IMG/VR virus record: IMGVR_UViG_2740892229_000022
Strand: one strand, 5' to 3'
DNA: 35,130 bases
DNA from: a virus
Lineage: Duplodnaviria > Heunggongvirae > Uroviricota > Caudoviricetes
Shown here: positions 6,001 to 12,000 of the stretch, one piece after another
How positions within the stretch are numbered: the first letter of the stretch is position 1
How the letters are laid out: the number at the start of each line of letters is the position of its first letter
Made by a program: the position numbers

Positions 6001-9000
6001 GTCACCCCGGCTTCCCCTCCCGTATCCACCGCCATGGCCATCAGACGCATGCGCACATCCGGATCAGAAGCCAGCGGCCATGTTTTATGGAACACATCCG
6101 TCAGCAACAAATCCCAGTCCTCCGGATATGCCGCCGGATCAACCGGCAGACTTTCACCGTTGGGACTGCAGCGCAGTGAATGCCGGATGTTGTAGCGATC
6201 AACAATCCAGCGTTCCCCCTGCTCTCCGTATCCGGTGATCTGCACAACAAAACGGCGATTTTTACCGCCCTGTACGTCAACCGTTGCCTCAATAAAACGC
6301 ACACCATCCGGCACAGATCGCCGGGGAAACGGCTCGGCACGCTGTTCAAGCAGTTCACTTTTACGCTGTTCCGTGGCTGAACGGGGCAGATAGGGTCGTC
6401 CGATATCGGTGTTCACCACCGCTTTCAGGGTCTCTTCACTGCCGGTTCGCTCATACTCTTCTTCTGCCGCCAGCAGTTTAAAAATCAGTTGTTCCCAGGT
6501 CTGAAACGCCGCAGCTGGCCCCTCCATCCAAAATGACGCAATCCGGGAGTTTCGTGGCGTTCCGGTGATACTGCCGTCCGCCGCCGCCCGTTCACCTTCA
6601 CGAAGCCAGATCCCCTGGTTATTCAGTTCGCGTTTCTGCTCAGGGGCAATCAGCCCGCGACAATGCGGACACATCAGACGGGCAGCCTGACCGGCAGCCA
6701 CAAAATCCGGGTTATTCCGGTATCCGGTCATGTTATCCATCACCGGCTGAAAATATTCCCCGCAGTGCGGACACGGCCAGTACCACCGGCGGCGGTCTCC
6801 CCGGTTATACAGTGACATGATACCCGTTGTTGGCGGTGCCTCATGTGCGCCACCACAACGCCATTTGGTATCGGTGATATCCCGCCCCGGTGAACTCTCG
6901 ACCAGGGTCATCCCCGAGGACATAAAGGTGGTGGTACGCTTTGAGGCCAGTGTGAAGGCATCCCCTTCCCCGTCCACGTTTTCAGGGAAACGGTCATAAT
7001 CCGTCAGCGCCACACGACGGTAATCCGAAGAGGAAAAGACGGTGATCGACGGCCAGCCAATCTTCAGGAAGGAGCCGTCAAGAAACATTTTATCGTGGAC
7101 GTTGTTGTCATTACGGGAAGGACTGAGGCGCTTGCTGACCTCCGGACTGTGGCGAAACGTCCTGGAAAGACGCGTTCTGGAATGCTCACGCGCCTTCGTC
7201 TCAGTCATCTGCACCACCAGCATATCCGCCGGATCACAGATGATGCCGTACACAATCCAGCCATCAATCAGCCCTTCGGTTTTCCCGGTTCGCGCAGGTC
7301 CCACAAACACCACCGCGTCATATTCACGGGCTGATAATGTATTAATGGGGTCAATCATATAGGGCGTCAGCGATGACTCCCACGGACCGGAAGTATTGGC
7401 TCCCCGTGGAACCCGCATATAACGCCTGATGGCTTCCGCTACTGGTAACCGGCTGGGTGGGCGAAACAGCGAGGCCACTTCGCGCCAGATATCGGATGCG
7501 CGGCTATGGCTCTCGTTCACCTGATTCACATATCGGCCTCATCACAACAGTCAATGACTGCCTTTTCCAGTGTATCGCGGATCTCATCAACCACAATCTG
7601 TACTTCATTCAGTTGTGATGCGGTCCACCCCCTGTCCCTTTCCAGCCGGTCAGGCCAGGTTTCCAGTACCTGAACTATCGCTTTCACCACGACAGAAAAG
7701 GACCGCCTGACATCACTGACTGGCACAAGCTGACCAGTTTCCTGCTCAAATTTCAGTCGGTCACGTTCTGACTGGTACCATGCTTTACGCGCATGAGGAT
7801 CCATTTCCTTGTTATCTACAGGCAGAGGAGCTTTCATCAGCTCGGCAAGAATATCTGTCAGTCGGTACAGTTTGAGATTGCTCTCATGACCACCGGCTGG
7901 GCTTATGTTTTTTACCCGAGCCGCAACAGTCTGTCGATGAGCACCGGATAATGCGGCCAGTTGGGAAATATTCAGATGCAGATTTTTTAATTCACGATCC
8001 ATAACCCCCCCCCTGAAAATTATGTAAACACACACCAGTGATGAACAAAAAACAACCAGATTCGACACTAAAAATTTTTATTTTTCTATATATCAATAAC
8101 TTACAATGGTGGTGATGGTGCCATAAAAATCAAAAAATGCGCCTTTTTCCGCGCCGCCCGCCCCGTGTTCAGGCCCACCCCACCAGGAGGACCCGCAAAA
8201 TGATAATGGTTATCATTTGCAACAAAATCCAGTTTCTTCCACCATCGCACCGGACTGGCGACTATGAGGGGACAACGCCGCGCTCCGTTAACGCGGTAAA
8301 CCCCGGTGTGTATCGTTTTTGATTATCCCCGCACACTCGCGCAGAGGAGTCTCCCTGTCGGGCTGCGGTCTCTGTTAATGCAGGAATACGGCGACAATAC
8401 CGCGCATGGATAATAAGGTCGCTCAACACACTGGCTGTAATGCAGCGGATACCATGCGGCATTTAGCGGCATTCATCGTACACTCAACGGTTAGCTCTTC
8501 ATTCGTGGCATTCACCTGAAAGGTCCTGGAGTGTAATTGCGTACATTTACCACTGAACGAACCTTCAACAAGAACACGACCACGCTGCAAAATACGGAAC
8601 GGAATTGTTCCCTGAAAAGGCTTTACGGTTACCAGTAATTTCTTCATGCATTCTCCGGATAACAAAAATACTAGTTAATACACTGAGTGCGGATATATTC
8701 CTGCGCCCCTTCCAGCTGCTTCTGCATCATCATCAACCGTTCTCTGAGGATGAAATAATCCCGTTCAGCGGTGTCTGCCAGTCGGGGGCNNNNNNNNNNC
8801 GTCAGCAGGGAACAGGCCCGTTTAAGAGTCACATCAGCCTCCTGAAAATAAAAAAACCGCCGGAGCGGTTCATGATGGTTACAGGGTGAACAGGGTTATA
8901 TGAAAAAAACCGCATATTCTTTCTTTTTCGGTTCCGGGTTGAGGGACATCAGGGAGACCGCATTGAACAGCGCCATCAGCGGGTCAATTTTTCCCCGTCC

Positions 9001-12000
9001 ACTGGCCTGTTTGGTGATAAGAATGGCGTTACCTTTAGGCTCCACCCGGGCATTGCCGACACACCAGGCCATCAGGGGCTGGTCACCGTGAATCAGCACC
9101 CCTTCAGCCAGTTTGCGCTCGGTGGTTTTGATGGCCCCACCCAGTTTCCAGCCCTGGCTTATCCCCACCACAATTCCTTCAGGGATCCCGGCTTCCGCCA
9201 GTGAATCCAGAATCTGCCCCACCCCTGACGGGTCAATACCGATATGGTCCAGTAACTCAGCCTCATGAATGCGACGCACATATTCCGCCACTTCCGCCGT
9301 GTCATCCCCGACACGCCGGACAATGGTCATATCTCCACAGGCAACAAGATCCTGAAACCGGGACGCCTCGCTCTTCCGTCGGACCACCGCGGTTTCATGC
9401 GCCCAGGCATGGCCCCAGCCCAGCCATTCGCGGGTCTCCCGGTCACGCCCAATCACATACATCCCCAGCAGATCATCCAGCCCTCCGCCGTCAATCCCCA
9501 CTGTCACCACATCAGCACGCAGCAGGATATCGTCCAGGCTGATACAACGGCCCTGCTCTTCCCAGAAATCCGCCCCCGCCCAGCGGTCAGAGCGCAGGGC
9601 AAGACCAATTTCCACATTGGCGTGTTTTGACATGAAGCCCCGGAATGTCTCTTCACCGGCTTCCCTGGCTTTTCGATACTCCCGGTACAGAAAGGCCTCA
9701 TCCACTGAATAGCCGAGATTCGGATTGACCATGGCGAGGTTTTCCATCAGCAGGTGAGCCCCGCTTTCCACCATTTCAGGAGGGTGTTCAAAGATCACCG
9801 GCAGAAAGTGTGGATCATGAATTTTGCCGTCGCGCACATCCCGGGCGTACTGCAGTTTCTGTCTGAACACCCCGGCGGGAGGTTCATTCGACTGGGTGGT
9901 CGTATACACCACAAACCCTTCCGGGCGGGAGGCAAGGCCACCGATGGCTTCACGTAACATGTCCTCCGCCTTGTACTGCTTGCCAAACAGCCACAGCTCA
10001 TCAATCAGCGTACCCACGGACTTGATACCGGACACCGTATTCGGATCGGCTGCCACCACCTTCAGGGTGGTGTCCGTCACCCGATGGGTGATGGTCCGGA
10101 TATGTGTCTGCACCTGACAGAGGTCATCCAGATCATCGTCCCGTCGTACCATATCCCTGGCAGGGTTGAAGGCGTTGGCTGCCACCTCCACTGTCGGGGC
10201 CAGAATGGTGTAGCCCGCCGCCTGCCGCCAGTTCAGTAACAGTGCAGTCATCATGATCCCTGCGGCCAGCGTGGACTTCGAGTTTTTCTTGGGGATAAGG
10301 ATAAAAACTTCCTTGATATGGCGTACACCAGTCTGCGCATCGTAGGAGCCAAACAGGGCCGCCACCAGGTCAAACACCCACGGTGCACAGGACTCCCCGA
10401 ATGTCGGGCTACCCGGTGCATCCACAATCCGCAGTTGTTTAAAAATCGCCAGTGCATGTGCAGCCTGGTCCGGGTAAACCGGAGCCGGAATAATCGACAG
10501 CCCCTTTTTCAGGCGCTCTGCCCAGTCCGGGCAGGCAGTGCTCCATACAGGTATCATCCGTTGCCCTCATTATCGTTATTCACCACCAGTCGGGGTGGCG
10601 GTGGCACCGCAAAACGGTTAGCCGCTTTTTTCGCGGCATCACCTTTTGCCGATTTTTTCCCGGTATCCCCTTTTTTATGGTGCGTGAACTGCGCCAGTCG
10701 CCAGGCCGCATCCAGTGCCAGTTTCGGATCAATTATCAGGTTTTCCACAAGGATCCTCCCCATTGCTTTTACCGGATCTGGAAGACCGTCTTCCATGTAA
10801 TCAATACCGGGCAGTGGTGAGAGGTTTTGCCCGTCATCAGGCGGCAGTGAAACCGGGGAGTTCTTTTCAGCCGGAGGGGCTTCCTTATGGCACTCCTCCG
10901 TCTGCATCTTTTTCTGCCGGTAAACAGGAACCTCATCCAGCTCCACCGTCTCGCATTGTTTACGGGCTATAAACGCGAGCACTTCCGGATCTTTTGCCAG
11001 TTGTGAACCTTTAACCCTGGCCGTCTTCGCCGAATAACCGGCAGCAATGGCTGACGCCGTTTTGTTTTTCCCGGACATGAGCGCCAGCGCAAATTTTCGT
11101 TTTTGCGTCGTCAGCACCGTCTCCTCCCGGGTTCAGAACTCACTCAGCCGGACATGCTTCAGGCCGTTTTATCCCGCCTTTCATGCCCCCGAATGTTAAC
11201 TGCTGCCTGGTTAACATTTGCTGAAAAAGCCAGTTAACATTTTTTCCGCACAACAAACTGAATAATAAAGATAAAAACCGCAAAAATGCCCGGACAGCCA
11301 GTTAACATGTTAACTGCCCTGAAACGGGAATTTTTTCTCTGCGTGAGAGGGGGGGCGGTGTCCGGAGCGATCGTTTTTTTCGCCGGATGATCCCCCCCGG
11401 GGCGGGTCACAGTCCGATGATATCGTCTGCCCTGCCATGACCTCCGGACACCTCCGGCAGCGTCGGGTCCGGCATACCACCCGCCGCTTCACGAGCAGAC
11501 TTTTGTCGATGGCATTCGGTGCAGAGCGTCCAGAGATTCGTCTCCTCATTACCACCACCGAACTGAAGTGCAATGCGGTGATCGAGTTCACTGTCACAGA
11601 GGTCAACCACACGACCACAGAGACAGCACTGCCCGNNNNNNNNNNACAGAGCGTCCAGAGATTCGTCTCCTCATTACCACCACCGAACTGAAGTGCAATT
11701 CGGTGATCGAGTTCACTGTCACAGAGGTCAACCACACGACCACAGAGACAGCACTGCCCGGCATCCCTGAGCCAGATATGACGCTTGAGGGAAACACGTG
11801 CACTGCCACTGACACGACGCTGTTCACCCTTCAGAATATTCACCCGCCGGGTGTTCAGAGTTTTGATTCTGCCCGGTAACGTACGAAGCACAGCCATGTA
11901 AAATCCTCGCCATATAGCTTGTCACCAGAGGAAAGAAAATGTCATCGAAAAACCGGCCCCGCAGAACAACAACCCGCAACATCCGTTTCCCCAATCACAT

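Follow-up and report, generated by a model that had tools for sequence, protein, structure and literature searches.

We examined the viral record IMGVR_UViG_2740892229_000022, a stretch of 35,130 nucleotides (nt; hereafter the window, always at its full length), in which two sets of phage DNA-packaging genes appear side by side: a lambda-type terminase pair within positions 1-8789 and, at 8896-11897, a second module with genes for an HNH endonuclease and for the small (TerS) and large (TerL) terminase subunits, and with repeats of a candidate cohesive-end site (cos). We concluded that the window is very probably a stretch of a scaffolded short-read draft of a Shiga-toxin-producing Escherichia coli (STEC) genome, and that the adjacency of the two modules is an artefact of scaffolding and not biological. 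We propose that the source strain would be an STEC with many lambdoid prophages, in which 1-8789 and 18263-35130 would be the two arms of one prophage encoding Shiga toxin 2c (Stx2c), packaged by its own DUF1441/GpA terminase. The lysis-to-cos interval between the arms, repeated in many prophages, would break short-read assemblies, and seven small contigs from other prophages would have been strung end to end there with fixed spacers of ten N (N10). Among these, 8800-11635 (capsid gene start, TerL, TerS, cos and the HNH C terminus) would come from a prophage whose capsid gene is interrupted just past TerL by the insertion sequence (IS) ISEc23, and 11646-12832 (HNH N terminus, DUF3950 and TonB_C genes) from yet another prophage, of the YYZ-2008/Pankowvirus-like family.

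Eight runs of N, each exactly 10 nt long, split the window into nine pieces:

8790-8799, N10 spacer joining unrelated contigs; on its left the Stx2c prophage with the 3' part of its Rz/lysis gene, on its right capsid-gene codon 11 of another prophage
11636-11645, N10 spacer flanked by contig ends that share 114 nt with 1 mismatch (with the first base included, 115 nt and 2 mismatches)
12833-12842, N10 spacer
13060-13069, N10 spacer
13356-13365, N10 spacer
14627-14636, N10 spacer
17471-17480, N10 spacer
18253-18262, N10 spacer

The sequence-only reading, made before any database search, had pointed to gaps at 8790-8799 and 11636-11645; both are present as N10 runs, and they bound and split the second module, which is spread over piece 2 (8800-11635) and piece 3 (11646-12832). 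To locate the pieces we used one nearly identical complete genome, that of E. coli 2013C-4991 (NZ_CP027355.1), with the following placements:

1-8789, Stx2c prophage (locus L002, 7102-15889), 99.98% identity
8800-11635, NZ_CP027355.1 1,553,461-1,556,296 (locus L004), 99.9% identity over 100% of its length
11646-12832, NZ_CP027355.1 249,507-250,693 (locus L005), 100% identity
13366-14626, NZ_CP027355.1 1,287,723-1,288,983, 100% identity
18263-28692, the same Stx2c prophage (L002, 19460-29889), 99.99% identity

The tested pieces thus map to four separate prophages. The counterpart of 8800-11635 belongs to another lambdoid prophage, with about 0.93 Mb between it and the Stx2c prophage, and the 0.25-Mb prophage that holds the counterpart of 11646-12832 has an intact HNH-TerS-TerL-capsid-portal set of its own. 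The sequence 1-8789 ends within the coding sequence of a 'lysis protein' of the Stx2c prophage. When a query spanning the left junction (6900-9700) was searched against 5,426 complete E. coli genomes, it was covered at 80% or more in none of them (0/5,426), and the best matches ended exactly at 8789 and then ran on into the lysis gene. A wider search (7400-12300) had given an apparent continuity of 8228-8789 with the module, which we rejected because local BLAST showed that this search had joined in a repeat copy that truly lies upstream of HNH. The earlier suspicion that the two modules are not those of one phage was therefore borne out, both by the complete genomes, none of which joins them, and by the comparison of each block with complete prophages, which places them in different prophages of 2013C-4991.

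The same results bear on the idea that the N runs are masks laid over continuous sequence and that the window is a true contiguous locus. Some collection records do carry masked stretches displayed as N; against this, duplicated piece ends were left unmerged beside the runs (114 nt at 11636, 135 nt at 17471, 105 nt at 13060, and others), as expected of contig ends, genes are interrupted mid-codon at the runs, and neighbouring pieces map hundreds of kb apart in the nearly identical genome. We regard masking as extremely improbable.

Comparison of the window with itself showed that piece ends recur at the starts of later pieces, with these repeats:

8672-8789 and 13753-13870, repeat pair
12747-12832, 13563-13648 and 8228-8313, repeat set
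12955-13059 and 13071-13175, repeat pair
13086-13270 and 13366-13551, repeat pair
14432-14626 and 14658-14852, repeat pair
17336-17470 and 17482-17616, repeat pair

Three different alleles of the phage-lambda left end, with cosN (GGGCGGCGACCT) and cosB, lie in pieces 4, 5 and 6 (at 12843-13059, 13070-13355 and 13366-13500); piece 4 additionally holds the first 24 codons of nu1 (MEVNKKQLADIFGASIRTIQNWQE), and the interval also contains a duplicate Rz. These lambda cos fragments belong to yet other prophages, 13366-14626 mapping at 1.288 Mb of 2013C-4991. With three kinds of packaging determinant in one window, the arrangement fits a tangle of repeats laid in series and not one phage genome. One further repeat (8188-8407, 12747-12832 and 13523-13742; about 90-220 nt, copies 93-96% identical) is found between cos/HNH and Rz in various lambdoid prophages; it probably helped to tangle the assembly and is likely to be a substrate for recombination between prophages.

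Lambdoid prophages often recombine through such shared repeats, and all pieces of the window are co-oriented and follow the generic order of a lambdoid late operon; both points would favour a real adjacency, in which the Stx2c prophage had acquired the HNH-TerS-TerL cassette by recombination or insertion, at a point between its lysis genes and its Nu1-like gene, and so possessed two terminase systems. We nevertheless consider this very improbable, since both junctions are N10 spacers, the left one would fuse a truncated Rz gene to capsid codon 11, no complete genome contains the junction, and 0.93 Mb separates the modules in a genome that matches the flanks at 99.98% identity; moreover, three further lambda cos alleles and a duplicate Rz fit stacked alternatives, not one linear phage. 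The specific version, that repeat- or IS-mediated recombination moved an intact cassette between Rz and the Nu1-like gene in this strain, we hold to be less probable still. If it were true, one toxin-converting prophage would carry two incompatible cos/terminase systems, which might affect the packaging and mobilisation of the stx genes, both in how they proceed and in what carries them out.

The join at 11636-11645 left a mark on the HNH gene itself, consistent with scaffolding. The sequence-only reading had listed an HNH endonuclease in the block; an HNH endonuclease gene is indeed present there, and the 195-amino-acid (aa) extent of its open reading frame (ORF; 11310-11897) is inflated, as it crosses the N10 gap and the duplicated overlap (11522-11635 equals 11647-11760, 114 nt, 99.1%) and then proceeds in the wrong frame. 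Once the overlap was merged, the gene encoded 121 aa and ended at 11407, a length equal to that of the annotated HNH genes of its relatives. Its two parts are:

11407-11635, minus strand, HNH C-terminal part, 229 nt at the end of contig 2; GGHGR allele, as in L004 (the 1.55-Mb prophage)
11646-11897, minus strand, HNH N-terminal part, 252 nt; MAVLRTLPG allele, as in L005 (the 0.25-Mb prophage)

The merged protein is an allelic chimera with the N terminus of the L005 allele and the C terminus of the L004 allele, and because it joins two alleles, pieces 2 and 3 come from two different prophage copies. The block that had been taken as one module is a distinct second packaging set as described, and it is itself stitched from two prophages, with TerL, TerS, cos and the HNH C terminus from one and the HNH N terminus from the other.

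Domain and repeat searches recovered every element that had been described for the block at 8896-11897, in the order HNH, repeats, TerS, TerL:

8896-10557, minus strand, TerL, 553 aa, intact; Pfam TerL_ATPase (1.6e-11) and TerL_nuclease (8e-10), PHROG terminase large subunit (1e-152)
10554-11117, minus strand, TerS, 187 aa; Pfam Terminase_2 (1.5e-8), PHROG 641 (2.6e-66)
11118-11406, HNH-TerS spacer and candidate cos region, 289 nt, non-coding; five GTTAACAT motifs and G/C-run blocks

The predicted TerL protein is of the HK97-gp2 type, in the Terminase_1 lineage, and the start of its gene is overlapped by 4 nt by the TerS gene. The HNH protein matched the profiles Pfam HNH (7.2e-7, residues 49-94) and PHROG 589 (1.2e-44) and has a beta-beta-alpha-metal core (C49xxC52, DH65, N75/N79, C84xxC87H88) with two CxxC pairs and the H-N-H residues. 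Its gene lies directly upstream of TerS on the same strand, its stop at 11407 being separated from the TerS start at 11117 by the non-coding spacer, and intact relatives share this HNH-spacer-TerS layout.

The cos-candidate repeats noted between HNH and TerS proved to be a significant cluster in a shuffle test: all five GTTAACAT matches of the 35-kb window fall within 11193-11314, whereas the chance expectation for the window is 0.97 and none of 100 shuffles (0/100) reached five. The motifs (11193-11317) are arranged as direct and inverted repeats, and the G/C-run blocks lie at 11340-11406, upstream of them in the direction of transcription (at higher plus-strand coordinates). The GTTAAC-containing motifs are invariant in five related loci, a conservation that counts as weak evidence since these loci are about 95% identical overall. 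We consider the GTTAACAT/GTTAAC motifs putative TerS recognition sites within a candidate cos. By analogy with HK97, we propose that TerS would bind the GTTAAC-containing motifs in the spacer, that TerL and the HNH protein would cut cos and leave cohesive ends, and that TerL would then pump DNA into proheads made from the downstream capsid and portal genes.

Downstream of TerL, the sequence-only reading had noted a hairpin with a T-run, then a gap, and no portal gene. Hairpin and N10 gap were both confirmed, the hairpin search placing the stem and T-run at 8871-8854 on the minus strand, and the remains of a capsid gene lie between them:

8844-8871, minus strand, terminator-like hairpin and T-run, 7-bp stem with 4 GC pairs; between the TerL stop and the ribosome-binding site of the capsid gene
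8800-8832, minus strand, first 11 codons of the capsid gene (VTLKRACSLLT), cut by the contig end

The hairpin/T-run sequence is also present in the relatives L001, L003 and L005; the ribosome-binding site of the capsid gene is kept in the window, and the translation of its 11 codons is identical to the N terminus of the L005 capsid protein. In relatives the full gene encodes 645 aa and is annotated 'phage major capsid protein' (YYZ-2008 records also give 'major head protein/prohead proteinase'). All intact relatives share the order TerL, hairpin, 645-aa capsid gene, small ORF, portal. The missing portal is thus no anomaly, because in these relatives the capsid gene comes between TerL and the portal and the contig stops within the capsid gene.

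In the 1.55-Mb prophage of 2013C-4991, ISEc23 (IS66 family, with tnpA, tnpB and a transposase gene; NZ_CP027355.1 1,550,958-1,553,460) interrupts the capsid gene 11 codons in, so that TerL is followed by ISEc23, the rest of the capsid gene, the portal gene and tail genes. The element has the ends GTAAGCG... and is flanked by a duplication of its 8-bp target CCGTCAGC, of which L001, L003 and L005 have a single copy. Piece 2 begins one nt into the CCGTCAGC target site; the contig ends there, the IS itself being outside the window, and its start at 8800 is within 1 nt of the ISEc23 end and target duplication in the reference. Multicopy IS elements are a standard cause of contig breaks. We infer that the same ISEc23 insertion is present at 8800 in the source strain. 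As the L004 prophage has, besides the IS in its capsid gene, a frameshifted portal gene, the home prophage of the cassette is probably defective; its HNH, TerS and TerL genes are intact.

Within the window only a terminator and a gap follow TerL, and some satellites carry small terminase or HNH genes of their own, so that the cassette might be thought a stand-alone packaging unit of a satellite like the phage-inducible chromosomal islands, redirecting helper capsids and hence lacking head genes after TerL. In every complete relative examined, however, the genes for capsid, portal, connector and tail follow immediately, the first 11 capsid codons are present in the window, and the break would be accounted for by the IS insertion; a satellite is, in our judgement, vanishingly improbable.

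Several points weigh against the reading of the window as a scaffolding artefact, or against parts of it. The placements rest on a very close complete genome whose identity to the source strain is not proven. The contig 8800-11635 contains no sequence shared with the Stx2c prophage, and its placement must for that reason depend either on linkage by way of the repeats or on another reference. One piece, 14637-17470, reached at best 98.9% identity, and thus had no match of at least 99%, when compared with the 5,426 complete E. coli genomes, which indicates that the source strain differs from 2013C-4991 somewhere in the interval; several prophage copies may have been collapsed into one consensus in this piece, or it may be a real strain-specific segment. 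Finally, the cos function of the GTTAAC repeats is a proposal.

The remaining features concern the resident prophage and the neighbours of the module:

5406-7529, minus strand, GpA-type large terminase; GpA_ATPase (1.4e-81) and GpA_nuclease (6.2e-84)
7526-8068, minus strand, DUF1441 small-terminase-like gene; PHROG 141 'terminase small subunit', not Pfam Phage_Nu1
11939-12139, plus strand, small DUF3950 (YlcI/YnfO family) gene (4.4e-20), the usual neighbour of the HNH gene in YYZ-2008-type prophages
12271-12612, minus strand, TonB_C-domain protein (5.8e-15), a moron between the lysis genes and HNH on contig 3; 'TonB family protein' in relatives
14637-17470, lysis/esterase contig with lysozyme, holin, DUF826, DUF1378 and the start of a NanS-p-like esterase

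The lambda-type Nu1-like/A pair that had been read in block 1-8789 was confirmed as a GpA-type large subunit with a small-subunit gene upstream, the small subunit being a DUF1441 protein outside the Pfam Nu1 family. The block also has a lambda-family portal and a ClpP-capsid fusion. In the Stx2c prophage of 2013C-4991 the DUF1441/GpA pair is the only terminase, and 3.57 kb (Rz, R, S, two small genes and the esterase) lie between the arms, compared with 9.47 kb in the window. In essence, a single Stx2c prophage makes up the window, from tail genes to the integrase (33844-35130, plus strand). Its Shiga toxin 2 operon, annotated as Stx2c in the nearly identical genome, has the A subunit at 19235-20194 and the B subunit at 18954-19223 (both minus strand) and is preceded by three tRNA genes (20285-20536, minus strand): two Arg-tct and one with a CAT anticodon, called Met by ARAGORN and Ile by RefSeq.

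The N10 joins at 17471-17480 and 18253-18262 lie inside the esterase gene region, with unmerged overlaps of 135 nt (97.8%) and about 165 nt (70%), and ORFs called across them (e.g. 16177-17469 and 17418-18539) probably suffer, like the HNH ORF, from truncation or a chimeric make-up. The other tested pieces are 99.9-100% identical to 2013C-4991, unlike 14637-17470.

The case is chiefly a caution: in drafts of genomes with many prophages, fixed-length N spacers can set alternative copies of a repeated interval in series, and a genome may then seem to hold two or three terminase systems, chimeric genes and ORFs that are too long. Awareness of the pattern guards against a false claim of an Stx phage with dual terminases. 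A mildly useful biological detail is that the home prophage is probably crippled by the IS in its capsid gene while HNH, TerS and TerL are still intact; the module is otherwise routine.

Compared with the Nu1/A system of phage lambda, the neighbouring block shares a GpA-family large terminase and a lambda-family portal and differs in its small subunit, and true lambda cos/nu1 fragments occur at 12843-13500; the second module differs in having no GpA domains. Its description as HK97-like held for the architecture and for TerL. In HK97, too, an HNH gene closes the late/lysis region and is followed by a non-coding cos region, TerS and TerL, and relatives of the module have HK97-type head-completion genes (gp10 family, head closure, connector) farther downstream. 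TerL is 23% identical to HK97 gp2 over 490 aa (BLASTP, E 4e-11), and its only match in the PDB was 6z6d (E 1.7e-9), deposited as 'Terminase large subunit', which we take to be HK97 TerL because the paper that reports the HK97 TerL crystal structure cites this code (PMC9410871). The description did not hold for TerS, a Pfam Terminase_2 protein with no similarity to HK97 gp1 (BLASTP E 48) and no match in the PDB, and the pairwise comparison of HNH with HK97 gp74 was not significant (E 0.11); after these comparisons we dropped strict HK97 family membership for both. Reading the spacer by eye against both HK97 genome ends revealed no obvious similarity of the cos DNA, and the head genes are ordered TerL, capsid gene, portal in relatives of the module and TerL, portal, protease, capsid in HK97. 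In HK97 itself, TerL cleaves cos with stimulation by the HNH protein gp74, while the motor is arrested and positioned by TerS bound beside the cleavage site; the ends have a 10-nt 3' overhang (PMC9410871; PMC11331095). HNH genes adjoining cos and terminase genes are widespread (PMC3592412).

The closest known system is YYZ-2008 (Pankowvirus YYZ2008), whose gp49-gp51 (HNH, TerS, TerL) region is 95.9% identical in nucleotide sequence over 97% of 8800-11635. The two agree in gene order, from the lysis genes through DUF3950, HNH, spacer, TerS, TerL and hairpin to the capsid gene and portal, and the GTTAAC repeats of the YYZ-2008 spacer are identical to those of the module. Nothing of substance differs, except that the window has the cassette on two contigs, each from its own prophage copy, and that its capsid gene breaks off after the 11th codon. 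Modules 94-95% identical occur in many Stx1a-, Stx2a- and Stx2c-converting phages, with equivalents in cryptic lambdoid prophages of STEC, and most of the module is present in about 1,125 of the 5,426 complete E. coli genomes, at a median of two copies per genome. Judged by its sequence, the module is a standard packaging cassette of the YYZ-2008/Pankowvirus type of lambdoid phage, often Stx1-converting, and is already known and annotated.

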